A stretch of DNA of 64,000 nucleotides, taken from Candidatus Saccharimonadales bacterium (lineage in GTDB: Bacteria > Patescibacteriota > Saccharimonadia > Saccharimonadales > DATKHC01). How positions within the stretch are numbered: position 1 is the first letter of the stretch; each line of letters begins with the position of its first letter. Below the pieces are notes generated by a model. It searched no databases. It was not told the origin of the DNA and was given only the letters and a program-made list of their open reading frames with translations. A program made the position numbers and the translations under genes. The stretch covers positions 22,036-86,035 of the forward strand of contig DATKHC010000010.1 in assembly GCA_035510465.1 (NCBI GenBank), given 5' to 3'. Positions 13,212-56,495 of the stretch are shown here, in pieces.

Positions 13212-13333
13212 TAATCATCGCTGTGTCACTTTGAAAATGTAGTGATATTATCTGTCGTTTTGAGTTTGAGGGATTTTGTAATATCATGCGGTTTCTAATT
13301 TATACGTAATCTTGATTCGGATAAAATGCGAAA

Positions 13334-13366
13334 CCGCTTATAGGAATCGAGTCGGAATTCCGTACC
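13334..13366 (-). repeat. Dispersed intergenic repeat, copy A (diverged; CGGAATTCCG palindrome)
   Basis: CCGCTTATAGGAATCGAGTCGGAATTCCGTACC. Reverse orientation of consensus GGTACGGAAYTCAACCTCGATTCCCAGCCAWAAGCGG. Confidence 0.5.
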
Positions 13367-13372
13367 ACTTAA

Positions 13373-13777
13373 TTGACAGTAGAACACATATGTTATAATC
13401 AATACATGAGTGATGTTTTTGAGATACAGACACCAGCAGAACCTGATGTAAGGTTTTATGAAGCTTTCAAAGCTATTGGGAGTGAACATGGCTACCAAGT
13501 AGAATGTGTAGGAGACACAATAGACGGGCAAACTATTTACCACGCCTTGATAATGACCCGTACTGAATACGACACTCTACTTGCTGAAGTCAACGAAAAA
13601 GAGCGAAGAGATTTTGAAAGTATCACTTTAATGCCAGGTGAAAGACGGGAGCCCTTCAGGCCTCACGAAGTTCTTCCATGGGAATTCTTTATTGAGCAAG
13701 AGGGTCTAGTTAGCGGATATCCAACCCGGAAGTCTGCATTACTTGCCTCACTGAAAAAAGTATTTTATCCGAATTAA
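13373..13777 (+). CDS. Hypothetical protein (possible start at internal MSDVFE)
   Basis: 134 aa ORF bracketed by repeat copies A and B. No recognisable motif. Confidence 0.45.
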   Translation: MTVEHICYNQYMSDVFEIQTPAEPDVRFYEAFKAIGSEHGYQVECVGDTIDGQTIYHALIMTRTEYDTLLAEVNEKERRDFESITLMPGERREPFRPHEVLPWEFFIEQEGLVSGYPTRKSALLASLKKVFYPN

Positions 13778-13784
13778 CGCCAAG

Positions 13785-13820
13785 CCGCTTATGGCTGGGG
13801 ATCGAGGTTCAACTCCGTAC
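13785..13820 (-). repeat. Dispersed intergenic repeat, copy B
   Basis: CCGCTTATGGCTGGGGATCGAGGTTCAACTCCGTAC, between convergent gene ends. Confidence 0.6.
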
Positions 13821-13821
13821 T

Positions 13822-14277
13822 CTATGACTGTGAATTACCAACCACAATCATTGCACAAGCGAATGCTTTTTCGTCTCGAGTTCTAACGAAAAGAGTATTC
13901 TGTGCTCTTTCTACGGGATTGTTAACTAGGTCATAGAACCCAACTCCACTAGGATTATCCTTGCCGTATCTCGTAAGCCAATCTGTCTCGTACTCATCGC
14001 CCAAAGCTTCCTCGAATTCAGATACGGCTTCATGAGGATGTTGGCCGGTATCGGGCATCATTAATAGAACGTGGCTTTCGTCTTCAATTGGCACCAAGGC
14101 TAATATTCCTTTAAGTGCTCTTGCAGAGGAATTGCCCTGGTAATCGACGATTCTAGCCCCCTCAGGAATGCTATAACTAGGGTCAACAATCGCTATGTGA
14201 TCGCCGTGCCCTGTTTCTTCTAGAGCTTTGAGCAGGACGCCGTTTATTCCTCTATCAATTCCTTTAAGTGGTGGCAT
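13822..14277 (-). CDS. RbsD/FucU-family sugar mutarotase-like protein
   Basis: 151 aa. The N-terminus GINGVLLKALEETGHGDHIAIVDPSYSIP resembles the RbsD/FucU GH(G/T)D core. Confidence 0.5.
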   Translation of the reverse strand: MPPLKGIDRGINGVLLKALEETGHGDHIAIVDPSYSIPEGARIVDYQGNSSARALKGILALVPIEDESHVLLMMPDTGQHPHEAVSEFEEALGDEYETDWLTRYGKDNPSGVGFYDLVNNPVERAQNTLFVRTRDEKAFACAMIVVGNSQS

Positions 14278-14364
14278 AATTTCTCCTTCTTAAGATATAT
14301 TTAAGACCTAACAGATAGGAATTGCAAGCTTGAGCAGTAAGTAGATTTACCAATAGATAAAGAT

Positions 14365-14399
14365 GCTTATGGCTGGGATTTGAGGTTGAATTCTGTACC
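14365..14399 (-). repeat. Dispersed intergenic repeat, copy C
   Basis: GCTTATGGCTGGGATTTGAGGTTGAATTCTGTACC. Confidence 0.6.
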
Positions 14400-14417: not shown

Positions 14418-15344
14418 TTAAATCAAAGAACCATATATAACTATATTGTTGCTATAGTGGTGGGTTTGTTCACTAAATACCCCACCACAAGTAATCAATC
14501 TAAGACCAGCGTAGTCAACGTTCCCATATACAAGTTGGGTTGGGAAACTATTTTGCGGATACTCTCTAAGAGCATCGACTTTAAACCTGGCAGTAGTCCC
14601 ATCAGCCCTAACTACATCAATTTCATCGCCTGGCTGAAGCAACCTTAAGTCCCAAAAGACACCAATACCACCTACGTGATCTACGTGACCAACTATAACT
14701 GAAGCCCCAATTGAACCTGGAGTTGGTGAACCTGTGTACCAGCCGGTGGTTGTATAGTCACTTGGCGGAGTTAAACTCCCGTCTGGTTGCAGACCATCGG
14801 GAAATACCGAAGCGTCAACTTCAATGCTCGGAATTTGAATTTCGACTGGCGTAGAACTAGGCATCGAAAGGGGTACAGCCGGTGTAACAATAGTACTAGA
14901 TTTTATAGCACCGGTGTCTGCCGTATTAATATTTATTCGGGCTACACCATAAACACTAGGTCCAAAAACAAACATCCCCGCAACTCCGGCCATGATAATA
15001 ATTAGACTGGCTGGATTTATTTGAGAGAAGTATTTCGAATTATTAACAGATTGCTGAATTATATTGAGTCGTGATCTGCGCTTTATGCCAGAGAAAGAGA
15101 TTTCCCTAAACGGCATGAAGTACAGAGGCAAGACTATCTGAGCCAGCAGTTTCGAACGATTGTTAGGTTTAGTTCGGAAACGTCTAACCGAGACAGAAAA
15201 ACGAATCTTGGAAAACCGTACTTGCCAACGACGAGCTCGAGTGTGATCTTTCCTAGCTGAACTCCTATTAAAATAGGAAATTGACCGCTTGGCGAGCACC
15301 TTTGCTTTATCAGCGAGGGGCTTTTTGATGCCTAACACGGTCAA
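14418..15344 (-). CDS. Class F (actinobacterial-type) sortase with long basic cytoplasmic N-extension
   Basis: IQIPSIEVDASVFPDG...GWYTGSPTPGSIGASVIVGHVDH...LLQPGDEIDV...FPTQLVYGNVDYAGLRLITCGG. About 130 basic residues precede the TM. Confidence 0.7.
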   Translation of the reverse strand: MTVLGIKKPLADKAKVLAKRSISYFNRSSARKDHTRARRWQVRFSKIRFSVSVRRFRTKPNNRSKLLAQIVLPLYFMPFREISFSGIKRRSRLNIIQQSVNNSKYFSQINPASLIIIMAGVAGMFVFGPSVYGVARININTADTGAIKSSTIVTPAVPLSMPSSTPVEIQIPSIEVDASVFPDGLQPDGSLTPPSDYTTTGWYTGSPTPGSIGASVIVGHVDHVGGIGVFWDLRLLQPGDEIDVVRADGTTARFKVDALREYPQNSFPTQLVYGNVDYAGLRLITCGGVFSEQTHHYSNNIVIYGSLI

Positions 15345-16531: not shown

Positions 16532-17208
16532 ACCTAGGGCTGATTGTAATTTAGCTAGGTTTACTACGATAAAAGAATGGTCTTTCTGTGATAGCAAGCC
16601 TTCTTTGAAAAGAAGCTCAATCGCCCTGCTGGCGGTCTCTCGGTTCATGCTAATAGAATCAGCGATATCCTGATGGGTGATTAGGAACGTCAATGAATAC
16701 TCCTGCCCCTAGGTGTTTGCCAAACCTTTTAGCCAGGTATATTATTTCTGCAATAATTCTTTCTCTGGCTCTGGCTGATCTAAACTCTAAGGTTTGGATC
16801 CTCTGTGTATACAGAGCAATGATGTTTACGGTCTGATTTAACACTTCCTGAGCCAACCATTGATTATTCCCCGTGTCTTCGCGCAACCTATCTTTGGATG
16901 CTTTTATAACGGTAACTTGACATTGCTTGGTAAGACAAGCCTGTTATATTTGTCCCGTCTAGCGCCCAAGGAAGCGGAATAAACTCGCCTGCTTGATGGA
17001 TTAGCAAAAGGTTCCCATTTCCGTTTCGTGATACAGAATACGCTTTAACAAAACCAAGCTTTATAAGATAAACTCCATCAGGCTCTTCAAGGCCATTAAT
17101 AATAGTCTCTTCTTTAGAGAACTCCATAATTAAACCATCATTGAAATGAGATATTATGCTTTTATCTTTGGTCTCCGAAGCTAGTGCAGCCCGTAAACTA
17201 GTATCCAT
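16532..17208 (-). pseudogene. Crp/Fnr-family regulator pseudogene (two frameshifts)
   Basis: Three consecutive minus-strand segments in three different frames. The cNMP-binding domain is 17208..16888. The middle segment, 16886..16659, reads RSARARERIIAEIIYLAKRFGK. The HTH, about 16680..16532, reads ITHQDIADSISMNRETASRAIELLFKEGLL. The intact paralog at 36936..37586 aligns with them collinearly. Confidence 0.7.
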
Positions 17209-17371
17209 ATACTAAAGTACATACTCCTTACGATTTAAATAACGTGACCTTGCGCACATACATATTAAAAAAAGCCATCTACTATGAGTATGGAAAGCTT
17301 AAACAATTACGCACATCAATTGGAAGGGGGGTGTTAACTAAACTGCTAGGCTTTGTTCATAAACACAGATA

Positions 17372-31134: not shown

Positions 31135-32370
31135 ATGAGCAAGCGAGCACCAGCAAAGAAGCATAAAAAAAAGAAGTATCCAGCTTTATTGGTGGCCGTC
31201 TTAATAATCCTGGTGATCGCAGGCCCAATTTTCTTCTTGTTCGTTCGTTTCAGCTCAATAGGTCAGATCCACCCCAGCATCTCAGGGCCAAATCAAATAT
31301 CTACGGGCAGTTTAAATATAAGCTGGCCTGCATCAACAGAGGACGCCATAGGCGTTAGTGGGTATGGTCTGCTTAGCGAAAGCTCCAACCAGGCCGCCTC
31401 CCCAACAGCAAGTATCGCCAAAATTTTAACCGCACTATCTGTATTAAGGGTAAAACCATTGGTTCTTGGGGAGCAGGGACCAGTCATTACTATCTCTTCT
31501 GCCGACGTTAATTCATACTTAACTTACCAGGCTGAAGGCGGTTCAGTTGTTAAGGTTTCTCAGGGTGAACAAATTACGGAGTATCAAGCACTTGAAGCTA
31601 TGCTGCTTCCTTCGGCTAATAACATGGCAGACACTCTCGTCAATTGGGCTTTTGGATCTATGGATAACTACACTAGCTATGCAAACAATTACGCCAAGTT
31701 AATAGGAATGAGCTCAACACATATAGCGGATGCCAGCGGATTCTCACCTCAAACCGTCAGTAGTCCGACAGATCTTATAGTGCTCGGACAGACTGCTCTA
31801 AACAATCAGACAATTGCTCAAATTATTGCCCAAAAATCTGCCGTTATTCCAGTTGCTGGTACGGTTTCAAACGTGAATTGGTTACTTGGACAGAACGGAG
31901 TAATCGGGATAAAGACTGGTAACACAGACCAGGCTGGTGGATGTTATTTATTCGCGGCCAATTACGACGAAGGTAAGCAGGTTATCACAATCATCGGCGA
32001 TGTGAGCAAGGCAAGCACACTACAGAATGCCATAGACGACGGGGCAAATCTAATAGACCAAGTAAGGCCACAGATCCAAACGATTAACTTAAGTGCGACC
32101 AGTCTTGAGAACGTAGAATACAAATCTACCTGGGGCCAGAACAGTTCCGCAACTGCCACAGACCAGGAGACTCTATCTTATATCCCAGGAATGATTTTAA
32201 AAGAGCAGGTTAGCACTAAATCCATCAGGGTCCCTTCCATGCAAGGTAAGATTGTCGGACAAATAACCATATCTTCTGGCGCAGACTCCATATCATCAGC
32301 CTTAGCGCTAAAAAACAGCATAAACAAACCTGGCTGGCTATGGGTCCTGGAACACCCAAGTAAAATTTAA
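31135..32370 (+). CDS. D-alanyl-D-alanine carboxypeptidase (peptidase S11, PBP5/6-like)
   Basis: SxxK (ASIAKI), SxN (PSANN) and KTG (IKTGNT) motifs. N-terminal TM/signal. Confidence 0.8.
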   Translation: MSKRAPAKKHKKKKYPALLVAVLIILVIAGPIFFLFVRFSSIGQIHPSISGPNQISTGSLNISWPASTEDAIGVSGYGLLSESSNQAASPTASIAKILTALSVLRVKPLVLGEQGPVITISSADVNSYLTYQAEGGSVVKVSQGEQITEYQALEAMLLPSANNMADTLVNWAFGSMDNYTSYANNYAKLIGMSSTHIADASGFSPQTVSSPTDLIVLGQTALNNQTIAQIIAQKSAVIPVAGTVSNVNWLLGQNGVIGIKTGNTDQAGGCYLFAANYDEGKQVITIIGDVSKASTLQNAIDDGANLIDQVRPQIQTINLSATSLENVEYKSTWGQNSSATATDQETLSYIPGMILKEQVSTKSIRVPSMQGKIVGQITISSGADSISSALALKNSINKPGWLWVLEHPSKI

Positions 32371-32939
32371 GTAATCAACTCTGTGACCGCTGATGGTTCC
32401 ATGTCTGGATAGTCAGTGTACCTTGTGAACTTTTGGTGTTTTTTCCATAAGCCTTCGAGTTCGCCTTTTGAGACAGCTTTTTTAGATAAATACCACGCTA
32501 GCTTAGCTGTGCCTTTTTTATTATCCTTAAGCTCAAGTTCAAAAAGTTTTGTGACTTTTATTGGCTTTCTGTACGAAACCCGATAAAGCACTAAGTTGTT
32601 GGAGTTAGTAATCACAACCCAATTTAGGCCTAGACCAAGAGCGTAAGCAAGTGCCTGCGAAAGGTGTTGAGGTGACAACTTAGTATTAAGCGGTTTAACC
32701 TCGATCACAAATATCTGCTTACCCATTATTTCGACTAGATAGTCGGCAAAACCTCCGCCAATATGTGGTTCAATTTTTATATCTACAAGCTCTTTGTAGC
32801 CTAGCACATCTGTTAATAGATGGTTTACAAGTATCCTGGTCGATGATTCAGATAGATTATCTAGCTGTTTGTTTAAATAAAAACGTCGGTAGCGATTTAG
32901 TTTTCCTGTTATACCCGCATCTGTGGGTGATAGGATCAT
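32367..32939 (-). CDS. Stand-alone PD-(D/E)xK nuclease-fold protein (HsdR N-terminal domain-like)
   Basis: GGGFADYLVE...IFVIEVKP (D...ExK). 190 aa. Directly abuts the IS30 element. Confidence 0.5.
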   Translation of the reverse strand: MILSPTDAGITGKLNRYRRFYLNKQLDNLSESSTRILVNHLLTDVLGYKELVDIKIEPHIGGGFADYLVEIMGKQIFVIEVKPLNTKLSPQHLSQALAYALGLGLNWVVITNSNNLVLYRVSYRKPIKVTKLFELELKDNKKGTAKLAWYLSKKAVSKGELEGLWKKHQKFTRYTDYPDMEPSAVTELIT

Positions 32940-33079: not shown

Positions 33080-34145
33080 ATCTTGTAGACTAGTGGTTGT
33101 AACACAACTAAATACAAGGAGAACAGAGATGCACTTTCATCTTACACAACAACAACGTATAGAGCTAAGCCTTTTGCTTAAGCTCGGTCACACGCAACAT
33201 AATATTGCACTGGTACTAGGAGTTAACCCAAGTACCATAAGCCGGGAGCTAGGTCGGAATCGTAGAGCTAGCGGCATATACCATCCGGCTTCGGCTAGAT
33301 TGAGAGCTGGCACACGACGAGCAAATGCCAATGCTCTACGTACTAAGCTACTGGCAAATATACAGCTAGCAGAAGCTGTAGAGCGTAAACTCATTCGTAA
33401 TGATTCACCAGACCAAATAGCTGGTTGGATGCGCGACACCAAACGGAGAGTCAGGGTTTGTGCTCAAACTATCTATGACTGGGTATACTTGCATGCTCGG
33501 CATTTACTGAAACACCTTCATTGCCGTAAAGGTAAGTACCGTCTAACTAGAGAAACTGCTCTTAAGAAAGCTTTTAGGGATAAGCTGAAAGAAGCTAGGC
33601 GTATTAGCGCTAGACCAGCCCATATCCAACGACGAAGTCGGTATGGCCATTGGGAAGGAGATACGGTTGTTGGCAAAGGCCATAGTGGCTGTATTGCTAC
33701 ATTCGTGGAACGCAAGAGTGGTTATCTAATGGCGGTTAAGTTGGCTCGAGGGACAGCCAAGAATTTTGAGGTAGCTGCAGAGCGTAGTTTTGCTGTCATT
33801 ACCAAAAGCTACCGCAAAACCCTAACCCTAGACAATGGCGCTGAGATGAGCAACTACGAGGAAATTGAACTAAGTACTGGTTTACGGATTTACTTTGCTC
33901 AACCCTATCATTCGTGGGAGAGAGGTACTAACGAGAATACCAATGGATTACTTAGGTTCTACTTCCCAAAGCAAATGAGGCTTGAAAGTATTACTCAAGA
34001 AATGCTTGACGTAGCCGTCAAGCAGCTAAATACTAGACCAAGGAAACGACTAGGCTACAAGACACCAGAGCAAGTCTTTAAGTTAAAAAGGTAATGTTAC
34101 GATTCGGGTTGGAATCTAAGGTTTAGTCGGAACCTAGTAACTCAG
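33080..34145 (+). mobile_element. IS30-family insertion sequence (boundaries approximate)
   Basis: Single DDE transposase ORF. The left end TGTAGACTAGTGGTTGTAACACAAC (33084-) resembles IS30 IRL TGTAGATTCAATTGG... The right end, around GGAATCTAAGG...AACCTAGTAA, is only loosely inverted-repeat-like. I could not delimit a target-site duplication. Confidence 0.55.
33130..34094 (+). CDS. IS30-family DDE transposase
   Basis: N-terminal HTH IALVLGVNPSTISRELGRN. HWEGDTVVGKGHSGCIATFVERKSGY, the IS30 catalytic region. An alternative upstream start at 33093 is possible. Confidence 0.85.
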
Positions 34146-36935: not shown

Positions 36936-37586
36936 ATGTTGGCTTCCGAAGCCCAAAATTCTGCTTTGGTTGACTTGTTCAGAAGAGAAGGGAATAAGTT
37001 AACCTACAAAAAGGGAGAATTTGTAATTCGCCCGGGACAAGCTCCTACGGGCGTTTTTTATATCTCAAGTGGGATCGTAAAGGCATTTGATATCACAAAG
37101 TACGGTGAAGATAACATGCTGATCATCCGAAAAGAAAAAGAAATATTCCCGCTAATATGGGCTGTAACAGGGGAAGAGCGGCACATCATCTACGAGACTC
37201 TGTCCGATACTATTCTGTACCAGATTAGTAGAGACAAATTCGTAAAACATATGAGGAATAACCCTGAGATTCTGACTCCACTGCTTGATATGGTCACAGA
37301 AATGTATCGAATCCATTCAGAAAGAATTCTAAACCTTGAGTATAGAAGCGTAAGAGAACGAGTGATATCGTTCCTAATCGCAATGTCCAACCGTTTTTCT
37401 AGACCAGCTGCTAAGGGTGTGACTATAGACGTTCCTTTGCGGAGGCAAGATATAGCCAGCTCAATAAACGCCACAAGAGAAACGACCAGTCGTGAAATGG
37501 TCTACCTTGAAAAGCATGGGCTTGTTTCAAATAAAAACACCTACATCACGCTCATTGATATAGATAAGCTTCAATCTTTCTTGTAA
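36936..37586 (+). CDS. Crp/Fnr-family transcriptional regulator (intact)
   Basis: cNMP-binding beta-barrel (GEFVIRPGQAPTGVFYISSGIVK) plus a C-terminal HTH (RQDIASSINATRETTSREMVYLEKHGLV). Confidence 0.8.
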   Translation: MLASEAQNSALVDLFRREGNKLTYKKGEFVIRPGQAPTGVFYISSGIVKAFDITKYGEDNMLIIRKEKEIFPLIWAVTGEERHIIYETLSDTILYQISRDKFVKHMRNNPEILTPLLDMVTEMYRIHSERILNLEYRSVRERVISFLIAMSNRFSRPAAKGVTIDVPLRRQDIASSINATRETTSREMVYLEKHGLVSNKNTYITLIDIDKLQSFL

Positions 37587-47986: not shown

Positions 47987-48436
47987 TTATCGAGTGTCAG
48001 TAATGACTGCGTTGTCTTCTGCGTCAGGGGCAGTCACTGTTACTCGGTTATTCGCATCTTCATATATTTGATAGTGAGTATCAGTATCAGTACCAGTTTG
48101 TGGATCCTCGGGTAACTTGACCATATAGGTTTCGTTGTTTGTCAGGACACTTAAGTCCACCTTGCCAGAGCAGACGTTTGCTCCAGTTGCGCAAATGTCG
48201 GTTGGGGTAGTTGTAATCGAAGCAGGCAAATTGCCGTTATTATCAATGCTGTATTCATAAACAGCATTTAGAATCTGATCAATATTTGATTGTCTCACTG
48301 CGTTTCGGCTATCGCCGAGCTGTTTTCCGGGATTAATGGCTAGAATTACGACGCCTGCTAATATGGCTATGATAGCCACTACTAGCAACATTTCTATTAG
48401 TGTAAAGCCGCCTTGGCCTTTTAGCTTTATTGACAC
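47987..48436 (-). CDS. Type IV pilin (candidate major pilin)
   Basis: Prepilin leader ...GQGG/FTLIEMLLVVAIIAILAGVV with Glu5. 149 aa with C-terminal Cys residues. Confidence 0.8.
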   Translation of the reverse strand: MSIKLKGQGGFTLIEMLLVVAIIAILAGVVILAINPGKQLGDSRNAVRQSNIDQILNAVYEYSIDNNGNLPASITTTPTDICATGANVCSGKVDLSVLTNNETYMVKLPEDPQTGTDTDTHYQIYEDANNRVTVTAPDAEDNAVITDTR

Positions 48437-48575
48437 GGTGCCCTTATGTTTTTTAGTAATCTTAGCCCTACTTAATTATCAATATAGACTAAGCACAATC
48501 ATTATACAACAAATAACAGATAGCCAATTAACTATTCACTCAATGCCTAGCATCAGAGTAAGGATTTTTGCATCT

Positions 48576-48610
48576 GGTTCGAATCTCCAAACCCCAGCCA
48601 ACCATAAGCA
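48576..48610 (+). repeat. Dispersed intergenic repeat, degenerate copy H
   Basis: GGTTCGAATCTCCAAACCCCAGCCAACCATAAGCA. The 3' half matches the consensus CCCAGCCAAGCGTAAGC at 15 of 19 positions. Confidence 0.35.
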
Positions 48611-48631
48611 ATTTAACTTATTAGTAGATAT

Positions 48632-48934
48632 TTATGCCGAAACAAAGAACTTCAGGCCCCTTGACCTATCGTCATCGTAAAAATCAAGGACGTTTTCATA
48701 AGAGTCTATTCCCATAAATCCATCCGTAGTTAAGACCTCGATACATTCCGGCCTATCTTCTCCTAACCCAACTACACTATGAACTGCAGCACCTAGTCTT
48801 GTGCTTTCGTCTCTTCCACCTAAAACAGCGTGGCGCCCCAGGGCAATTGGGGGATTAATAGGATATCCTTCTTCAACAACGTGGTCGGGTGCGGGTGGAC
48901 AATCGAACTCCCTAGCTACTATTGTGCCGTTCAT
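48632..48934 (-). CDS. Hypothetical protein; in frame with the upstream ORF across a single TAA
   Basis: 100 aa ORF with no recognisable motif. Confidence 0.35.
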   Translation of the reverse strand: MNGTIVAREFDCPPAPDHVVEEGYPINPPIALGRHAVLGGRDESTRLGAAVHSVVGLGEDRPECIEVLTTDGFMGIDSYENVLDFYDDDRSRGLKFFVSA

Positions 48935-48964
48935 CCAATACCCAAAACGGTGGCAGTTTGTTAC

Positions 48965-49297
48965 TTATCTTCGTCCAGGTACCATAAGACCCGTATATTC
49001 ACTTCTGACTTGGTTAAATCGGGGTTTATCTACAAAAAATCGAGTATAAAACTCACCTAGTTTACGGGCTACATCTTCAGGCATTTCTATGACTTCAAGC
49101 TCGGCATCCTTTGGATTGTACCCTGATTCAGGAACGGTATAGTCAACTCTTGTCCAACGGGTTGGTGACATATCTTGGACAATTTCCATACCTACAACAC
49201 GCCTATATGGTTGTTTGGTTGTCCTACCGTTTAGGTGAACATAAGTCGACGGAACAGTGTATAGTTGAACTCGCTCAATACCTGTCATAATAAACAT
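48965..49297 (-). CDS. Hypothetical protein
   Basis: 110 aa. The stop TAA at 48965-48967 is followed 10 codons later, in the same frame, by the next ORF. Confidence 0.35.
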   Translation of the reverse strand: MFIMTGIERVQLYTVPSTYVHLNGRTTKQPYRRVVGMEIVQDMSPTRWTRVDYTVPESGYNPKDAELEVIEMPEDVARKLGEFYTRFFVDKPRFNQVRSEYTGLMVPGRR

Positions 49298-49357
49298 ATT
49301 ATAGCATAACTGTTATAGATTATCAACTATAACTAGTGTAGTTAGGTCGTTTTATGG

Positions 49358-49388
49358 GGTACGGAACTCAACCTCGATTCCCAGCCAA
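49358..49388 (+). repeat. Dispersed intergenic repeat, copy D
   Basis: GGTACGGAACTCAACCTCGATTCCCAGCCAA. Confidence 0.6.
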
Positions 49389-49472
49389 TATTTCACCTAT
49401 GTCAACATTTGTGCCACCTCGGTTTGAATCCTTGTTGAATATTTGCGTCTGCGCATATAAGATTATATAATA

Positions 49473-49922
49473 TTGGTCATGGCAACCCAACTCGAATTTC
49501 AAGACCCACAGGTGCAGAGTGCGCTTGAAAATTTTAGTGAGTACGTCCTGACTAGTAACTTCAGAACCAGGATAGTACATCAAATTACACGGGTTATTGA
49601 TTTAGCTGAGTACTGCGAACATCCAAAACAAAAAATAGCGAACCTAAAAGAAGCTCTTGGGGCAGAAGCTTTATTTGCAGTTTGGAGACAACCTCTCAGT
49701 AACACCGAGGGCAACTTAAACCTCATCGTGAAAGTTGACGGAGACGGACGTATTATTGATGGATCTCCAGTACACGTTGGGATTTTAGTTGATGACCATC
49801 CACAAATGACCTGTTTTGGTTTCACTCCTGATGAACTAAGGGTTGTTGAGTATTTTGCGCTTGCTCAAGATCAACTACCCTGGCAACCCAACACTAGTGG
49901 ATTAATCTATCATTCTCGTTAA
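49473..49922 (+). CDS. Hypothetical protein
   Basis: 149 aa ORF bracketed by repeat copies D and E. Confidence 0.45.
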   Translation: MVMATQLEFQDPQVQSALENFSEYVLTSNFRTRIVHQITRVIDLAEYCEHPKQKIANLKEALGAEALFAVWRQPLSNTEGNLNLIVKVDGDGRIIDGSPVHVGILVDDHPQMTCFGFTPDELRVVEYFALAQDQLPWQPNTSGLIYHSR

Positions 49923-49949
49923 AGAGCCGGATTAATTACTTATCAAACC

Positions 49950-49989
49950 GTACGGAACTCAACCTCGATTCCCAGCCAAGCGTAAGCGG
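49950..49989 (+). repeat. Dispersed intergenic repeat, copy E (longest)
   Basis: GTACGGAACTCAACCTCGATTCCCAGCCAAGCGTAAGCGG. Confidence 0.65.
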
Positions 49990-49995
49990 TTTGAC

Positions 49996-50412
49996 CTAAG
50001 TCAGTTTTAGAAACTCAGCCGGAGTTAGTATTTGAATATTCTCGTATTTCTTTATGACCGTTAAGTCTTTATCGCCGCTAATAATATAGCTGCATTTGCC
50101 AATAACCGCTGTCTCTATAATTTTATTGTCGTCTATATCTCTAGAGACATTAATTACACGACTTCCAAGAGGTACCCATATTGCATATTTTCTAAGCAAC
50201 TTCTCGTATCTTCCTATGCCAGGTATGTGTTCCGGGAACCTAGAGGTTATGATGCGCCTGAGCTCAGACATGATCTCTTCTGACATCACAGGTCTTATTA
50301 CCTTATCGGGGATTAAATTTGTAACTTTTCGAGGAGTTCCTCCGAATACCAGAGCAGAGACAAGAACATTAGTATCAACTACAGCTCTAACTGGCTTTTG
50401 ATTGCTTTTCAC
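49996..50412 (-). CDS. PIN-domain toxin (VapC-like)
   Basis: VRAVVDTNVLVSAL (first acidic Asp) and IISGDKDL, typical PIN signatures. 138 aa. Confidence 0.8.
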   Translation of the reverse strand: MKSNQKPVRAVVDTNVLVSALVFGGTPRKVTNLIPDKVIRPVMSEEIMSELRRIITSRFPEHIPGIGRYEKLLRKYAIWVPLGSRVINVSRDIDDNKIIETAVIGKCSYIISGDKDLTVIKKYENIQILTPAEFLKLT

Positions 50413-50644
50413 TCTTGTACTCTGTAATCTTGTCGTAAACTTGCTGCTCGCTAGTTATTCCTGTCTGTTGGCCCAATTTATTTCCCCAATTGAATAGGTC
50501 TTCCCATTCTTTTCGGCGATCTAGGTCATCTAATGCCAAGCGACGGAAATACTCACTTCGGCTGCCCATATCTTTTTTAACAGCTTCGTCTATTTCTTTT
50601 AAAAGTTTTTCGTCTAACGCGATATTTAGCGTCTTAGTTGCCAT
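50387..50644 (-). CDS. Ribbon-helix-helix (CopG/VapB-like) antitoxin
   Basis: MATKTLNIALDEKLLKEIDEAVKKDMGSRSEYFRRLAL. The likely start is the MATKT Met at 50644. Overlaps the PIN gene by 26 nt. Confidence 0.7.
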   Translation of the reverse strand: MATKTLNIALDEKLLKEIDEAVKKDMGSRSEYFRRLALDDLDRRKEWEDLFNWGNKLGQQTGITSEQQVYDKITEYKSEKQSKAS

Positions 50645-50703
50645 ATTATATTCTCCTTCTACACATATTGTATAGATATTGTATAGGCATGTCAACTTAA
50701 CGT

Positions 50704-50741
50704 GGTACGGAACTCAACCTCAATTCCCAACCAAGCGTAAG
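50704..50741 (+). repeat. Dispersed intergenic repeat, copy F
   Basis: GGTACGGAACTCAACCTCAATTCCCAACCAAGCGTAAG. Confidence 0.65.
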
Positions 50742-50766
50742 AATTTTAATTTGATATTATTAAATT

Positions 50767-50949
50767 ATGCCATCTCCTCGTGTAATTCACGAATTTGAAG
50801 TCGGAGTACCTCCAATAGGACACGATGACGAAAGAATATTGTCTCCAACTGAGACTAGAATACTGAAAAAGTTAATATTGGGCGGAGACGTTGATCAAGC
50901 CACTAACGACTCACTATTAAGTAAGTTTGCCGGATTTATGACAGTTTGA
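50767..50949 (+). CDS. Hypothetical small protein
   Basis: 60 aa ORF immediately after repeat copy F. Confidence 0.3.
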   Translation: MPSPRVIHEFEVGVPPIGHDDERILSPTETRILKKLILGGDVDQATNDSLLSKFAGFMTV

Positions 50950-50972
50950 ACTCTAGCAATAAATAGGATTAG

Positions 50973-51574
50973 CTATCCAGTTTTTTCAGCTAATAACGCC
51001 ATGTGACCCATGCCTGCACACAAACTAGCCCGCTGCCAACTATAATCAGCGTTATGGAAACCGTACTCTGCAAATCCATGTTCAAATTGATCGTTTATGA
51101 ATACTCCCTCAACTTCTGGGCCCATACACGCACAATTACCCATAACCTGTACTCCAATTCCACCAAGTTCTCTTCTGCCTGCTGAAAAACCCATGTGAGT
51201 TCGAGTTGATCTTTGCGGTGTCTCTTCCGGTAATTCATGCAGAGACCTATATGCATCTTGCATAACTCGCCAAGTATCGCTTAATAGCCCTGGGTTGCTA
51301 TCCACCCATTCTTGTAGCTTGGGGCTGGCTATTAGACGACCAGGATAGTCTGGTATGTAGAGGGGGTGTTTCCCGACTTCTGCTACATCTATACCTTCAT
51401 CGCGCTCAGTCCTAAATCTGAGTGACTATAATCATGGGGATCAAAAGAGTCTAAAGGGAGAGATTTATCGGCTATTAAGAAGACTTTGTCCTTGCTGTCA
51501 TAGCTAAATGGATAAAGAGTTGCTCCTGAGCCCTCTCTTGCAAGGTATTCAAAAAACTCGGGTACTTCAGCCAT
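50973..51574 (-). pseudogene. Frameshifted gene (two overlapping reading frames of one probable roughly 230 aa protein), unknown family
   Basis: ORF 51574..51389 ends in ...SAMKV. A second frame is open from 51425 to 50973 with a GTG 'start' at 51305. The two overlap over 51389..51425, so one indel would join them. Confidence 0.45.
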
Positions 51575-51627
51575 AGGTCTAATATATATTAAAATTTTAT
51601 TGAAAGCTAGTAACTTTTGTGATCTAA

Positions 51628-51656
51628 GTTACGGAATTCAACCTAGATTTCCAGCC
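51628..51656 (+). repeat. Dispersed intergenic repeat, copy G (diverged)
   Basis: GTTACGGAATTCAACCTAGATTTCCAGCC. Confidence 0.5.
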
Positions 51657-51665
51657 TTCATAAAC

Positions 51666-52094
51666 CTAATAAGGTGTGTCCTGCCAACTGCTTACCGACA
51701 CCTGAGGTGAGGTGGCATTTACGGTTATAGTAATTTGGTGATAGTAGCTGGTGTAGCCGTTAACTACGCTGCCAAGTGAGCTAATTGAATAGTTCGGGTT
51801 TGTGCCGGATATAGTGTAGTTGCAAGTCTCATTAATACTTGAGTTAAGTGTTTGGGAGCCACTGAGCGGGCTAGGGGAGCCTGGGCTCTGTTGGATAGCT
51901 AGTAGGGCAAGCTGCGCGCAACCGCCTGAAGCAGCTTTCGCCTGAACATTGCCATCTACAGCCCCGGATGAAATACTTGAATTCTGACCGCTCAGAAGCA
52001 GAAAGGCTGCAGTGGTTACCGCAATTACACCTAGCACTAAAACTGTTATCAGGACTATGTAGCCTTTTTCTTGGCTGTTATTTATTCTACTCAT
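51666..52094 (-). CDS. Minor pilin/pseudopilin-like protein (PilX/GspK-like, lacks Glu5)
   Basis: N-terminal KGYIVLITVLVLGVIAVTTAAFLL hydrophobic helix. 142 aa. Last gene of the pilus operon. Confidence 0.5.
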   Translation of the reverse strand: MSRINNSQEKGYIVLITVLVLGVIAVTTAAFLLLSGQNSSISSGAVDGNVQAKAASGGCAQLALLAIQQSPGSPSPLSGSQTLNSSINETCNYTISGTNPNYSISSLGSVVNGYTSYYHQITITVNATSPQVSVSSWQDTPY

Positions 52095-52648
52095 GGCAGT
52101 GTTGCGGCACCGTAGAAAGTTTTTACGTAGTTATACTCAGCCAAGCTTGAGCCGCTTTGGTAACTGAGAGTGAAGTGGAACAATATTGAGCCCTTAGTGT
52201 TGAATAAACCCTCATTGATAAAACTAAGCCCAGATAAATTTACATGTGAGCTTGTTAAATAGGTAACGTTAGCTGGACTGCCTTCGCTAAGCCTCAGTCG
52301 GTTGGTTGTACCGTCGTTATAGGAGTCGAAAACTGTTGGGTTATTGCCGGCGTCCACTACGGTCAGACTAAGCATAGTGTCGGAATTTGCCATTGCTGGA
52401 TCATTAATCGAGCTAGCGTTTCTGATCGTTTGGTCAATTAGGGATACATTAGACTCTCCTTGGTAATTAACTTCTGCTATGGCCTCCGATTTAACCCTTT
52501 GAAGCGAAGTTATCGCCGCCAAACCTACAATCGCTCCAATAACCAGTGAAAATATCGCAAGATACAGTAGAACTTCAGCCAAAGTAAATCCAGATTGATC
52601 GTTTGAGTTGGATAAATCTTTTAATCGGTTCATGTTGGTGCTGTCCAA
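52091..52648 (-). CDS. Type IV minor pilin
   Basis: QSG/FTLAEVLLYLAIFSLVIGAIVGL prepilin motif with Glu5. Confidence 0.7.
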   Translation of the reverse strand: MDSTNMNRLKDLSNSNDQSGFTLAEVLLYLAIFSLVIGAIVGLAAITSLQRVKSEAIAEVNYQGESNVSLIDQTIRNASSINDPAMANSDTMLSLTVVDAGNNPTVFDSYNDGTTNRLRLSEGSPANVTYLTSSHVNLSGLSFINEGLFNTKGSILFHFTLSYQSGSSLAEYNYVKTFYGAATLP

Positions 52649-53085
52649 TTACTAAAAATAGTCGTTGCGCTAACTTGAGGGGTCTCCTGAGCGCTTTCAA
52701 CCCAAGAAACTGTAACTTTGGCTTGTCTCGTTCCATCCGGGCCCTCGGAAAAAACTATGGCGGGGGTAAATATATTGTTCATCGCCGTTGGAGTAGTTAT
52801 CAGGCTCCATTGATTCGATACAGTGGTCAGGTAATATGTAGTTCCGTCAGTGTAGTCAGCCAAGTTTGAATAAGAACTTTGAGCAATGTTGGATACTGCT
52901 TCGATAGCAGCGTTGGCAATTTCTGCACCGTTATAAGCGTCACCAGCCAAGGCCGTGGCCTGACGTCCGTAAACGAAAGCCGACAAAATAATCAAACTAA
53001 TTATTCCAAAAATAGCAGTGGCCAAGATAATTTCAATTAAAAGTAAACCTGCTTGGCTTGAGTTAAACCTGCGTTTGGACTTCAT
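52630..53085 (-). CDS. Type IV minor pilin-like protein
   Basis: SQAG/LLLIEIILATAIFGIISLIIL. Confidence 0.6.
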   Translation of the reverse strand: MKSKRRFNSSQAGLLLIEIILATAIFGIISLIILSAFVYGRQATALAGDAYNGAEIANAAIEAVSNIAQSSYSNLADYTDGTTYYLTTVSNQWSLITTPTAMNNIFTPAIVFSEGPDGTRQAKVTVSWVESAQETPQVSATTIFSNWTAPT

Positions 53086-53549
53086 CAGTAATCAACCATG
53101 CCTTTAGAGTTAACGCTGATCGTAACGCTTTTATTTGACGAGCTTAGATTTATAGAAGCAGGTGATGACGGGAGCCCATAAAGAGCCGAGTAATCAATCT
53201 CGGTCGTACCTGAGGTACTTATACTAGCTGGGATTGTGTAGTTGAAGTCATATGCGGAATTTCTCGATGCGTAAGTATTGCCACAAAAAAGCGTAATAAC
53301 CGGGTTATTTATAGCTACCCCCCAACCACAGCCATGAGATTCACTGCGGCTGTAAATTTGAGCCTGGTAGAGATCCTGGACTAAAATATCCGTTGCTAAA
53401 TCAACTGCCCCATTCTTTTGAGCGCTTGCATAAAAGGGCGCCGCTATAGCGACAATAATACTTATAAGTGCAGTTACAAGTATTACTTCAATTAGAGTAA
53501 AGCCGCCCCCAGCGGCCTTTTGGTTCCCGCTCGCGCTTGAACTAGCCAC
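53085..53549 (-). CDS. Type IV pilin (GspH/FimT-like)
   Basis: GGG/FTLIEVILVTALISIIVAIAAPF. Confidence 0.7.
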   Translation of the reverse strand: MASSSASGNQKAAGGGFTLIEVILVTALISIIVAIAAPFYASAQKNGAVDLATDILVQDLYQAQIYSRSESHGCGWGVAINNPVITLFCGNTYASRNSAYDFNYTIPASISTSGTTEIDYSALYGLPSSPASINLSSSNKSVTISVNSKGMVDY

Positions 53550-54798
53550 TGGCGTTTAGGTTTCCTATTAAGCTGTAGATCGGCAAGAAAACTCCAAGCG
53601 CTACAAATAGGACCCCAACCGCAATAATCACCAAGATAATTGGCTCAAGTAGAGTTTCAAGATTATGGGCTGTGATATCCGCCTTATCCTCATATGACTC
53701 GCCAATTTTCAGCAAACTTTCTGACAGAGTACCCGATTTCTCAGCGCTGACAACTATCTGACAGATTGCTCCTGATAACATTTGACGATTCTTTTTGTTG
53801 GCCAAAATTTTAGCAAAAGAATTACCGACATCAATCTGGTTACTTAGGTCATAGGCAAATACTTGGTAACGTCTGGTGACCATTGATCCAGACAGAGATT
53901 GCAGGGCAGCCACGACCGGTAAACCCGCCTCAAGTAAAGTGCCAAATATATATCCGAAACGAGCTATCTCTGTTTGGAATAGAAGTTTCTTTATTCCGGG
54001 GATGTGAAACATGATAGCCTCCGAAAAAGCTCTAACTCTGAATGAAAGTTTGACTGCAAAAATGAAAGCCACGACCACAATAGCCACAGTGACTGCGAAA
54101 ATTACGCCCCAATGAGCGAAAAAACCACCTATAGCAATCAATCCTCGCGTGATTGGACCAACCTTAACTTGCAAGCTATTAATAACGCTAAGTAAACGGG
54201 GGAGTAAGAATACTCCGACGCCAGTGCCAACAGCGAAAAGTAGACAAACCAAGAAAGCAGGGTAGAGCATAGCTGATTTTATTTTCGAGGACATGACGTT
54301 ATTCTTGTGAACCTGATCAGCAATGACTTTTAGGTTCTGTGGCAACTTACCAGTAGATTCGCCAATTAGGATCAAAGTCACCGCGGACTGGTTGAACAAC
54401 CTGGTCTGCTCGATGGCCTGAGAAAAAGGCATACCCTCGTCAACCTGCTGACGAATTTTTAAAATTGCGCTTTTGATTTTTGGTTTCGAGAGTTCTGTCG
54501 CTATAGAATCCAGCGCTTCTCCAACCGAAACTCCCGCTGTTAACATCATGCTTAAGTTACCAATGATATACTCTGTATCCTCTCGGCTGATGCCTCCAAA
54601 TATCCGTTTTCTGGGGATTTTAGCTCTCAATTGATTAAGCTGCTGACCAAGTGAAGCATCAGGGTCTTCTACAGCTTTCGCTATGGGGTCAATTGTGGTC
54701 GGATTTTGGGCTTCAACTTCAACACTTTTTGGTAGTGGTGGTCCAGCCTGGCCAATAGGTGCGCTTTTTTCTGGTATTTTTGCTTTTTCGACATCCAT
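53542..54798 (-). CDS. pilC: Type IV pilus assembly platform protein PilC (GspF family)
   Basis: 418 aa. Two GspF repeats with 3 TM. 1-bp overlap with pilB. Confidence 0.85.
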   Translation of the reverse strand: MDVEKAKIPEKSAPIGQAGPPLPKSVEVEAQNPTTIDPIAKAVEDPDASLGQQLNQLRAKIPRKRIFGGISREDTEYIIGNLSMMLTAGVSVGEALDSIATELSKPKIKSAILKIRQQVDEGMPFSQAIEQTRLFNQSAVTLILIGESTGKLPQNLKVIADQVHKNNVMSSKIKSAMLYPAFLVCLLFAVGTGVGVFLLPRLLSVINSLQVKVGPITRGLIAIGGFFAHWGVIFAVTVAIVVVAFIFAVKLSFRVRAFSEAIMFHIPGIKKLLFQTEIARFGYIFGTLLEAGLPVVAALQSLSGSMVTRRYQVFAYDLSNQIDVGNSFAKILANKKNRQMLSGAICQIVVSAEKSGTLSESLLKIGESYEDKADITAHNLETLLEPIILVIIAVGVLFVALGVFLPIYSLIGNLNASG

Positions 54799-56495
54799 TA
54801 TCTGGGTTCCGCTACTCTAAGCAATTCTTGAAGAGTCGTCAGACCGGTTTGAATTTTCTCAATCCCATCTTCGAACAAAGTATGATCACCTTGTTTTTTA
54901 GCTAGGCGTTCAATTTCGACAGTTGAAGGATTCTTTAGGATAAGTTCCTTCATTTCTGGGTTTATACTAATTAGCTCAAAAATAGCTGTTCGACCATGAT
55001 AGCCCGTGAAGTTACAGCCATTACAGCCCTTGCCCTGATACAGCGTTACTTTGGGTGTGTGAAAGTACGTATCGGCGTTGGGTAGGTATTCTCTTATAAC
55101 TCCTATGTCCACACCAAAGCTATAGCGGCAGGCTGGGTGAATTGTCCTAACCAGTCGCTGAGCAATAACTAGGTTAAGTGTGCTGGCAAGCAGGAAAGGC
55201 TCCACGTCCATATCAAGTAAACGAGGAATAGCTGCTGCAGCTGTATTGGCATGAAAAGTAGAGAATAGGAGATGCCCAGTAAGAGCGGCATTAACGGCCA
55301 GCTCAGCCGTATCATTGTCTCTGATTTCTCCCACCAAAATAACATCGGGATCCTGCCTAAGCATTGCCCTTAGTCCTTCGGTAAAGTTTATGTGCGTTTG
55401 TTGGTTTACTTGGATTTGGTTAACCCCGACTATCTTGTATTCCACCGGATCCTCGATCGTCGTGACGTTAATTTCTGGGTTGTTAAGCATTTTGATCATT
55501 GAATAAAGTGTGGTGGTTTTGCCTGATCCTGTTGGTCCGGTAGTAATGATCATGCCATAAGGCCTGTGAATCTGTTTGTCTAAAATGGTCTTGTCGGCTT
55601 TAGAGAGCCCAAGGCTCTTAACACTTATCCCCTTAGAGTATTCAGCTAGGATCCTAAGCGCTGCTTTTTCACCGTCTAGCGTTGGTATTACAGACATACG
55701 AACGTTCACAGGTTTACCGTCGATCTTATAGCGAATAGCACCGTCTTGGCTCATGTTGTGTTCATCAATTCGCATATGTGCCTGGACTTTTAGACGGTTC
55801 AAAATATTGTCGTAATACTGCTTGGGTAGCTGACCGGCATCGTGCAGTACTCCGTCAATTCTAAAGCGGATCAGAACAATCGATTCTTGTGGCTCGAAGT
55901 GTATATCTGAGACTTTGAAAGCCGTAGCATCCTTTAAGATTTCATTAATAATCTCTGGTGCTACTCGGTTTTGCTCCTTCAAGATTTGATTGAACCTGGT
56001 AACCAGTGGCTTCCTGTAATGAATTAAAACTTCATTAAGGTCATCCGGCATGGCATAGGCGATTTCGATCGGCCGACTGTCACCGAAGATTCGTTTTAAT
56101 TCCTCAAGTAGCCCAGTTTGGCGAGGATTATCGGTTGCTACAGTTAGGATATTGGTATCACTTTTGTATACGACAACCCGATACTTCTGGCCGACTTCCG
56201 GGGAAATCATACTTATATATTCCTTGGTGGGCTGAAAGACCCCAAGATCCGCAAACTCTACGCCGTAATATCTAGCCAAAGTTTGGCCCATAAGATCATA
56301 GGCAACAATATTTTGGTTCAGTAAATAATCAAACAGACTGATATGGTGGGTAGCAATATAGCCTTCTGCCATTTGCAGCTCTTCATTACTAAGAAACTGC
56401 CCCTTAATCAGTAACGATTTTAAGAGATTGTCGTCTTCCGGCACCAACTTCGGTGCAGTTTTCAGGTTTTGTGGCTGATTTATAGACTGATCCAT
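54798..56495 (-). CDS. pilB: Type IV pilus assembly ATPase PilB (GspE family)
   Basis: Walker A ITTGPTGSGKTTTLYSM. 565 aa with an N-terminal GSPII_E_N domain. C-terminal Cys motif CNGCNFTGY. Confidence 0.9.
   Translation of the reverse strand: MDQSINQPQNLKTAPKLVPEDDNLLKSLLIKGQFLSNEELQMAEGYIATHHISLFDYLLNQNIVAYDLMGQTLARYYGVEFADLGVFQPTKEYISMISPEVGQKYRVVVYKSDTNILTVATDNPRQTGLLEELKRIFGDSRPIEIAYAMPDDLNEVLIHYRKPLVTRFNQILKEQNRVAPEIINEILKDATAFKVSDIHFEPQESIVLIRFRIDGVLHDAGQLPKQYYDNILNRLKVQAHMRIDEHNMSQDGAIRYKIDGKPVNVRMSVIPTLDGEKAALRILAEYSKGISVKSLGLSKADKTILDKQIHRPYGMIITTGPTGSGKTTTLYSMIKMLNNPEINVTTIEDPVEYKIVGVNQIQVNQQTHINFTEGLRAMLRQDPDVILVGEIRDNDTAELAVNAALTGHLLFSTFHANTAAAAIPRLLDMDVEPFLLASTLNLVIAQRLVRTIHPACRYSFGVDIGVIREYLPNADTYFHTPKVTLYQGKGCNGCNFTGYHGRTAIFELISINPEMKELILKNPSTVEIERLAKKQGDHTLFEDGIEKIQTGLTTLQELLRVAEPR

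Follow-up and report, generated by a model that had tools for sequence, protein, structure and literature searches.

Xer-dependent pdif modules of Acinetobacter plasmids are small units, often with toxin-antitoxin or resistance genes, that are bounded by short sites and rely on a recombinase encoded elsewhere. Each pdif site is a 28-bp XerC/XerD site with an 11-6-11 dyad, and the orientation of the sites alternates. To our knowledge, little is known about how accessory genes are gained and lost in the candidate phyla radiation (CPR, Patescibacteria), whose genomes are very small. Saccharibacteria depend on type IV pili for host contact and DNA uptake. In integrons, the attC site is an imperfect palindrome (R''-L''/L'-R') that folds as a single-stranded hairpin, for which IntegronFinder uses a covariance model (PMC4889954). 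Clusters of attC sites without an integron-integrase are called CALINs (Cury et al. 2016, PMC4889954). For the tycheposons of Prochlorococcus, tandem elements split by partial tRNAs and scattered older partial tRNAs have been described (bioRxiv 10.1101/2020.12.28.424599). Here we report an array of small genes in a 64-kb stretch (the window) of contig DATKHC010000010.1, from a tiny-genome soil bacterium of the Saccharimonadales. The array separates the pilus-assembly genes from the main pilin gene, and five co-oriented copies of one repeat bound four cassettes in this island (48437-51665). Our analysis suggests that the cassettes were probably assembled by site-specific recombination at a site derived from tRNA-Gln, with the recombinase acting in trans.

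Anatomy and distribution of the repeat

The sequence-only reading of this DNA had held that each gene of the island is bracketed by a repeat. Repeats do bound all cassettes (591-924 bp), but these number four and not six units, as a 60-amino-acid (aa) open reading frame (ORF) and a probable frameshifted gene lie together between sites D and E with no repeat between them. The five sites are the following.

~48571-48614, forward strand: site A, the first junction, degenerate (nhmmer E 1.5e-6, alignment, comparison with tRNA-Gln)
49359-49450, forward strand: site B, consensus left half, core and an extended right half of ~62 nt
49950-49993, forward strand: site C, consensus left half, core and consensus right half AGCGTAAGCGGTTT
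50705-50748, forward strand: site D, consensus left half with 2 mismatches, core CCCAACCA and consensus right half
51629-51665, forward strand: site E, the last junction, diverged consensus left half followed by CCAGCC (nhmmer E 1.4e-9, alignment)

A degenerate pattern of 24 nt gave 6 matches, with 0.00 expected by chance. An nhmmer profile detected exactly 8 copies in the 64 kb (E 1e-6 to 1e-13), five in the island and three in a second array, and none in the ~50 other intergenic regions of the window. All 8 copies fall into two clusters and point the same way within each, and the genes that they bracket are all accessory.

The repeat is ~45 bp long and consists of three parts, namely a left half of 29 nt (GTACGGAACTCAACCTCGATTCCCAGCCA), the core CCCAGCC(A), and a variable right half. 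Our alignment covered 20 junctions, taken from the window and from seven further contigs (L001-L005, L020 and L021). In these, the left half is near-invariant and sharply bounded, and conservation collapses right after CCAGCCA. The left half is identical at 29 of 29 positions between the window and L001, whose orthologous DNA is only ~70% identical. It is placed just after the stop codon of cassette ORFs of the same sense. The right half is found as A(GC)RTAAGCGGTTT, as a shorter TAAGCGG, as an extended module of 62 nt beginning ATATTTCACCT..., or as unrelated flank.

The two outer sites of the island are both hybrid in appearance. At site A the left half is not the consensus; it is a tRNA-like fragment, GGTTCGAATCTCCAAACCCCAGCCA, with a T-loop-like stretch according to the comparison with tRNA-Gln, and it is followed by CCCAGCCA as the core (48593-48600) and then by a right half close to the consensus, ACCATAAGCAATTT. 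At site E the right flank is non-consensus and extends into the stop codon that ends the last minor pilin. Between them, site B has the extended right half, which runs ATATTTCACCT...GGTTTGAATCC; the same module is found directly 3' of a genuine tRNA-Gln in L021. Repeats B and C have 30 identical bases in common.

The arrangement is the same in three independent assemblies, which are the window itself (an NCBI metagenome-assembled contig), JGI contig L006 (100% identical to the window over 1833 nt) and Logan contigs L008 and L022. The ends of Logan contigs L008, L017 and L022 fall exactly at repeats B and C; these breaks are an assembly effect and no evidence of structural variation.

Our scans of sequence collections used exact patterns, and diverged sites may have escaped them. 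Of 185,579 species genomes, at least one (L001, chromosome OY969420.1) has the repeat, as do at least six short metagenome contigs. Three pattern scans of IMG/VR gave no match, and an origin from phage or plasmid was rejected on this result. CRISPR (clustered regularly interspaced short palindromic repeats) was also rejected, given the spacing of 455-1436 bp and the coding nature of the units, and so was a tRNA, tmRNA or structured RNA, given that ARAGORN and Rfam were negative for the repeat and for the 62-nt module and that no consensus fold was seen.

Folding was analysed in several ways. RNAalifold gave 0 consensus pairs on 8 repeat copies, single-copy DNA folds were inconsistent (z from -2.8 to +1.9), and over 16 sites, with two folding windows and both strands, the mean z was -0.03 to -0.43. 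These values bear on two other explanations. The first is a classical integron array without a neighbouring integrase, that is, a CALIN whose attC sites are unusually conserved. The layout is indeed an array of small cassettes, sedentary integrons typically carry toxin-antitoxin genes and orphans, and chimeric sites are expected in integrons (PMC4889954). However, there is neither consensus pairing nor excess folding energy on either strand, no paired inverse core site is present, and the conserved part extends over only 29-45 nt. The identity of the sites as attC was rejected on the lack of a hairpin in the folding tests and of any Rfam match, and we give this explanation very little credence.

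The second is that the repeat is an element like a repetitive extragenic palindrome (REP) or a miniature inverted-repeat transposable element (MITE), or else a regulatory or RNA-processing motif common among accessory genes, and that it does not mobilise the genes at all. Its shortness, its intergenic position and its restriction to one lineage agree with this. A protein-binding motif is hinted at by an 11-nt stretch of the right half, AAGCATAAGCG, which is the reverse complement of part of the conserved spacer in the pilin promoter of relatives; this likeness is probably a coincidence, because the promoter in the window itself, 75 nt away from site A, aligns with that spacer, and a shared DNA-binding motif is the alternative. 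On the other hand, the repeat has no hairpin, no terminal inverted repeats and no Rfam family, with a mean folding z of 0 to -0.4 over the 16 sites. The 8 copies are all clustered and not dispersed, and their orientation is fixed within arrays whatever the orientation of the genes, which argues against a signal at the transcript level. The unit common to L020 and L021, described below, includes a gene besides the repeat. Taken with these points, an element of the REP or MITE kind appears improbable.

The tRNA-Gln link and the breakpoints

The core CCCAGCC(A) is identical to the acceptor 3' strand, the discriminator and the CCA of tRNA-Gln(UUG), and the last 9 nt of the left half are the same as the 3' end of tRNA-Gln(UUG) in L021. 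In L007/L021, a genuine tRNA-Gln(UUG) (ARAGORN; Rfam 65 bits) ends with ...CGTCCCAGCCA, and the extended right-half module begins directly after it; an RraB-like ORF comes next, and then a complete repeat. The 62-nt module (window 49388-49450; L020 637-700; L004 ~800-860) contains the T-loop-like GTTCGAATCC and is possibly a second, decayed tRNA fragment.

A tRNA-derived core and a cassette directly behind an intact tRNA-Gln would also fit an accretion of the tycheposon style. According to this explanation, successive tRNA-targeting integrative elements arrived with their own integrases at the 3' end of tRNA-Gln, the integrases were lost, scars of partial tRNA remained, and the block, or the site that seeded it, came to lie at the pilus locus. 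The T-loop fragment at site A and the partial tRNAs described between tycheposons point the same way. However, no tRNA was found in the 64-kb window by ARAGORN or Rfam, and both arrays of the window lie at junctions of protein genes. No integrase fragments were found in any array and no mobility genes in any cassette, and the units are uniformly tiny (0.45-1.4 kb). The near-invariance of the left half across genomes that are ~70% identical argues for a selected functional site and against a decaying scar. Decayed elements of this type are thus an unlikely source of the array, though the likeliest of the alternatives that we weighed.

Our junction alignment showed that the left and right halves of the repeat assort independently. 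The extended right half has four left partners, which are tRNA-Gln (L021), an unrelated intergenic sequence (L020), the consensus (site B of the window) and a variant (L004). The consensus left half, in turn, is joined to no fewer than six right partners. For contigs L020 and L021 both the sample and the assembler differ, and yet 637 nt with the module, the RraB-like ORF and the repeat are common to both at 100% identity. Their left flanks are unrelated, that of L021 being the tRNA-Gln gene, and the identity begins exactly at CCCAGCCA. An overlap of 8-9 nt is too short for a k-mer assembly chimera and for RecA-dependent recombination. Halves that are combined around one fixed point of 8-9 nt are, at the level of sequence, the signature of site-specific recombination. 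An attI-like module common to the left flanks of site A and L020 was also considered and rejected, as the alignment shares only CCCCAGCCAA.

The same breakpoints bear on the explanation that no dedicated enzyme is needed, and that identity of 30-45 nt served RecA-dependent or microhomology recombination, by which arrays would gain, lose and swap units, for instance after pilus-mediated DNA uptake, which is assumed for Saccharibacteria. The 30 identical bases of B and C are near the minimum for homologous recombination, and no recombinase was found in our scans of the window. However, the foreign junctions (L020, L021 and site A) share only 8-9 nt, which is too short for RecA, and the break is always at the same core. 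Moreover, an invariant sequence of 29 nt, in one orientation and just after ORF stops, is left unexplained. We regard this explanation, like that of a REP or MITE, as having a low probability.

The layout of co-oriented sites and short cassettes is also found in L001, L003, L004, L005 and L020. Across the arrays the units measure 455-1436 bp and hold one or two ORFs, with ~11 of 16 oriented like the site. Same-sense ORFs terminate 1-50 nt ahead of the left half, and the distance from the core to the start of the following ORF is 33-102 nt. This geometry of ORF stops and starts around the sites fits an insertion model.

In the site-specific model that we prefer, the attachment site would be a double-stranded sequence of ~45 bp, with the crossover at the core CCCAGCC(A). 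A circular cassette would carry one complete site and would recombine with a resident chromosomal site or with a look-alike, such as the 3' end of tRNA-Gln or another sequence containing CCCAGCCA. The conserved left half would then land at the far end of the inserted cassette, and the cassette after it would begin with the right half. Each event would yield hybrid junctions, and an array of n cassettes would have n+1 sites. In the window, the array would have started at a secondary target, in the stretch from the last minor pilin to the pilin promoter, and the foreign left half of site A and the foreign right half of site E are what is expected from such seeding. The recombinase would be encoded outside the window and act in trans, as in CALINs of integrons, and cassettes antisense to the repeats would be expressed from their own promoters. 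The anatomy, the lack of the island in relatives, the independent assortment of the halves and one breakpoint precisely at the core are observed. We infer a circular intermediate, an enzyme and a direction of events; the sites may still be active and the cassettes mobile.

Several points weigh against this model. Our domain scans detected no tyrosine or serine recombinase among ~60 ORFs scanned in the window or in the array-bearing contigs, and the sole transposase of the window is IS30-like (33093-34094), with no evident link to the sites. Neither a circular junction nor an empty site or population variant was found, the three assemblies of the strain being in agreement. By inspection, the dyad symmetry usual for core sites of tyrosine recombinases is not obvious. 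The likeness of the left half to the T-arm and acceptor region of tRNA-Gln is modest beyond the 9-nt core, with an alignment score of 21-24 versus 12 +/- 2.4 for shuffled sequences, some of which scored equally high. L020 and L021 differ at the left junction only, their right side being common to the end of the shorter contig, and the event between them could be an exchange between arrays and not the insertion of a single cassette. Beyond this pair, no cassette was found to be common to different arrays. The family is small and narrow by the exact-pattern scans, the statistics rest on ~20 junctions, and the nearest relatives are distant.

Cassette cargo, the pilus locus and the second array

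The features of the four cassettes are as follows.

48632-49297, reverse strand: cassette 1 (A-B), one gene of ~215 aa with an in-frame TAA (ORFs 48965-49297 and 48632-48934)
49326-49298, reverse strand: promoter-like site of cassette 1, TTGATA-17-TATAAT, with TG
49473-49922, forward strand: cassette 2 (B-C), orphan ORF of 149 aa, in the same direction as the repeats
49996-50695, reverse strand: cassette 3 (C-D), type II toxin-antitoxin pair of PIN toxin and RHH antitoxin
49996-50412, reverse strand: PIN toxin (PIN_3, E 1.1e-16; TIGR00305, E 7.8e-17)
50387 to ~50644, reverse strand: RHH antitoxin (RHH_1, E 5.4e-5; called as 85 aa in L008)
50695-50667, reverse strand: promoter-like site of cassette 3, TTGACA-17-TACAAT
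50767-50949, forward strand: cassette 4 (D-E), ORF of 60 aa, a candidate gene of no known family
50973-51574, reverse strand: cassette 4 (D-E), probable frameshifted gene (61-aa ORF 51389-51574 and 110-aa ORF 50973-51305)

The sequence-only reading had listed two hypothetical ORFs in one frame split by a single TAA, a 149-aa hypothetical, a PIN/RHH pair and a 60-aa ORF. All of these are present in our gene calls, and the split ORFs proved to be halves of one gene. Their full-length homologue, P0125, is 46% identical over 216 aa (E 1e-76), and a papain-like (NlpC/P60-type hydrolase) Cys-His fold is predicted for the family. The 149-aa ORF has a single homologue, 41% identical, among 5.8 billion proteins and has no Pfam, NCBIfam or PADLOC match; its structure model was unusable (predicted local distance difference test score 47.5). 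In cassette 3, the PIN and RHH genes overlap at 50387-50412, and the pair is predicted to be VapBC-like and of type II, with the PIN toxin preceded by the overlapping gene of a small DNA-binding antitoxin. Each of the two island cassettes that run antisense to the repeats has its own strong promoter-like site.

The frameshifted gene that had been proposed for cassette 4 is plausible. It comprises two ORFs in different frames, and by three-frame translation the second frame is open for 38 codons upstream of its start; no family match was found, and no homologue that would confirm the frameshift. The possibility that it is a remnant of the ~240-aa ORF of relatives (see below) was rejected, as there is no similarity. 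PADLOC gave no anti-phage defence match for any cassette ORF.

Across the arrays the cargo includes toxin-antitoxin pairs of PIN/RHH, ParE/Phd and CopG type, GNAT, APH, DUF488, RbsD/FucU and RraB proteins, and orphans. This cargo is typical of cassette pools and, with one gene interrupted by a stop codon and one apparently frameshifted, it was counted in favour of the cassette model. The RraB-like ORF is a near-orphan like the 149-aa ORF, and homologue searches for further arrays yielded only the context in L019. A homologue of the 149-aa ORF is found in no contig but L019, which has no copy of the repeat. L019 contains a different direct repeat of 173 nt (88% identical, at 22-194 and 3360-3532, with a partial copy at 4825-5024), which codes for a small hydrophobic peptide and has small genes between its copies. 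It may represent a further repeat system that is specific to a lineage.

The genes on either side of the island are on the same strand and are separated by ~3.2 kb of accessory genes, as had been read from the sequence and as gene calls and Pfam agree.

51666-56495, reverse strand: pilus assembly operon, with pilB, pilC and four minor-pilin-like genes (Pfam, tblastn against relatives, gene tables)
54798-56495, reverse strand: pilB (Pfam T2SSE)
53542-54798, reverse strand: pilC (Pfam T2SSF)
51666-53549, reverse strand: four minor-pilin-like ORFs
48481-48509, reverse strand: pilin promoter TTGTAT-17-TATATT (alignment with the conserved promoter of relatives)
47987-48436, reverse strand: major pilin, 149 aa, with a class III signal / N-methylation motif (Pfam N_methyl, E 1.3e-7)

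We compared this locus with six Saccharimonadales lineages, whose PilC proteins are 57-64% identical to that of the window and are the closest found. In these relatives the locus is contiguous and on one strand throughout, and consists of pilB, pilC, ORFs of ~150, 590, 178 and 140 aa, a conserved ORF of ~235-258 aa, and the pilin(s). The repeat and the island genes are both absent from it. Consequently, an ancestral block with the same genes in the same order but without repeats was not seen in any of the six lineages. Strict adjacency of the pilin and the minor pilins is not seen in the relatives either, as the one conserved ORF lies between them; this ORF (~240 aa) is missing before the pilin of the window. 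The second minor pilin of the window (52630-53085, reverse strand) has 151 aa versus ~590 aa in the six relatives, and aligns only to residues 10-151 of this longer orthologue. The pilus operon of the window lineage is reduced.

The major pilin is 70% identical to the pilin of L013 and 51% to that of L011. The pilin promoter of relatives is TTGYAW-AACGYTTATGCTTAG..-TATNAT, and the promoter of the window (48509-48481) aligns with it at ~75 nt from site A. It is also kept in distant relatives, including the 17-nt spacer AACGYTTATGCTTAG (L009/L011 ~15270-15310, L013 ~15180-15215, L023 ~12560-12600). The native pilin promoter thus appears, from this alignment, to have been retained beside the island, and since the pilin has its own promoter an insertion would be tolerated. 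The absence of the island from relatives and the promoter kept in the window indicate an insertion or replacement at the one intergenic position that holds a promoter for the pilin. The GC content of the island is not distinguishable from that of its surroundings. The locus had been described as conserved, with a plastic, repeat-delimited cargo inside it. The repeats and the synteny bear out the delimited cargo and the conserved setting. The L020/L021 breakpoint is independent evidence for mobility, and the plasticity of the cargo is deduced.

The second array is placed between the 3' ends of two convergent genes, a sortase (14418-15344, reverse strand) and a polysaccharide deacetylase (11457-13211, forward strand). 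Its site H has no CAGCCA core, as if scarred.

13325-14398, reverse strand: second array, with sites F (14398), G (13820) and H (13365) and two cassettes
13822-14277, reverse strand: cassette with an RbsD/FucU-like ORF of 151 aa
13373-13777, forward strand: cassette with an orphan ORF of 134 aa

Further observations were made elsewhere in the window. At 16532-17211 (reverse strand), three adjoining ORF fragments match one Crp/cNMP-binding regulator of 228 aa in L001 with 77-82% identity, and this is apparently a frameshifted, pseudogenised regulator of the Crp family; an intact paralogue is present at 36936-37586. The IS30-family transposase (33093-34094, forward strand; HTH_38 and rve) adjoins a protein with an HSDR_N_2 domain (32367-32939). 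A homologue of the latter lies ~0.7 kb from the array in L001, and no link to the repeats was established.

Comparison with described systems

In the literature that we searched, no integron-like cassette arrays are described from Saccharibacteria or CPR. A broader proposal, which we put forward tentatively and with less confidence than the assembly of this array by recombination, is that Saccharimonadales own an integron-like capture system. It would have gene-sized cassettes with a double-stranded, non-hairpin site that mimics the 3' end of tRNA-Gln, and a recombinase in trans would insert cassettes at the tRNA, at existing sites and at look-alikes, as at the pilus locus. If this is true, the tiny genomes of Saccharimonadales would have several dispersed cassette arrays, and arrays for gene capture would have evolved more than once, here with a linear tRNA-derived site versus the folded attC. 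It would also point to an unrecognised pair of recombinase and site, and to a possible tool for the genetics of organisms that are at present almost intractable. The position of the array is also of importance, as the array splits a type IV pilus locus beside the promoter of the major pilin.

The array is similar to integrons and CALINs in its tandem units of 0.5-1.4 kb, mostly with a single gene, and in having one site per unit, just downstream of the ORF and co-oriented with all others. The junction sites are hybrid (chimeric), as judged from their sequence signature; the cargo is rich in toxin-antitoxin pairs, acetyltransferases and orphans; and there are several dispersed arrays with no integrase nearby. 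As no recombinase was found in the window or the array contigs, these arrays are also CALIN-like in needing a factor that acts in trans. However, the site has no R and L boxes and no hairpin, and is a linear conserved sequence that apparently derives from the 3' end of a tRNA. Neither an attI-intI-Pc platform nor a Phage_integrase domain was seen in ~60 ORFs scanned in the window or in the array contigs. The end of a tRNA gene can serve as the target, and the host is of a Patescibacteria/CPR lineage.

With pdif modules the array has in common small units bounded by short recombination sites, but its sites are without the 11-6-11 dyad by inspection and are all direct.

The likeness to tRNA-targeting elements such as the Prochlorococcus tycheposons (bioRxiv 10.1101/2020.12.28.424599) is that direct repeats which may be partial copies of a tRNA 3' end separate blocks of cargo, and that one related contig (L021/L007) has a cassette behind an intact tRNA-Gln. 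Tycheposons, however, are several kb long, have their own integrase and replication genes, and form islands that adjoin full-length tRNAs, whereas the units here are gene-sized, have no integrase and are placed at junctions of protein genes, and the T-arm portion of the repeat is no longer like a foldable tRNA. In function, the array is therefore closest to integron arrays without an integrase, and in its site closest to the attachment repeats of partial tRNAs, but it has the defining features of neither.

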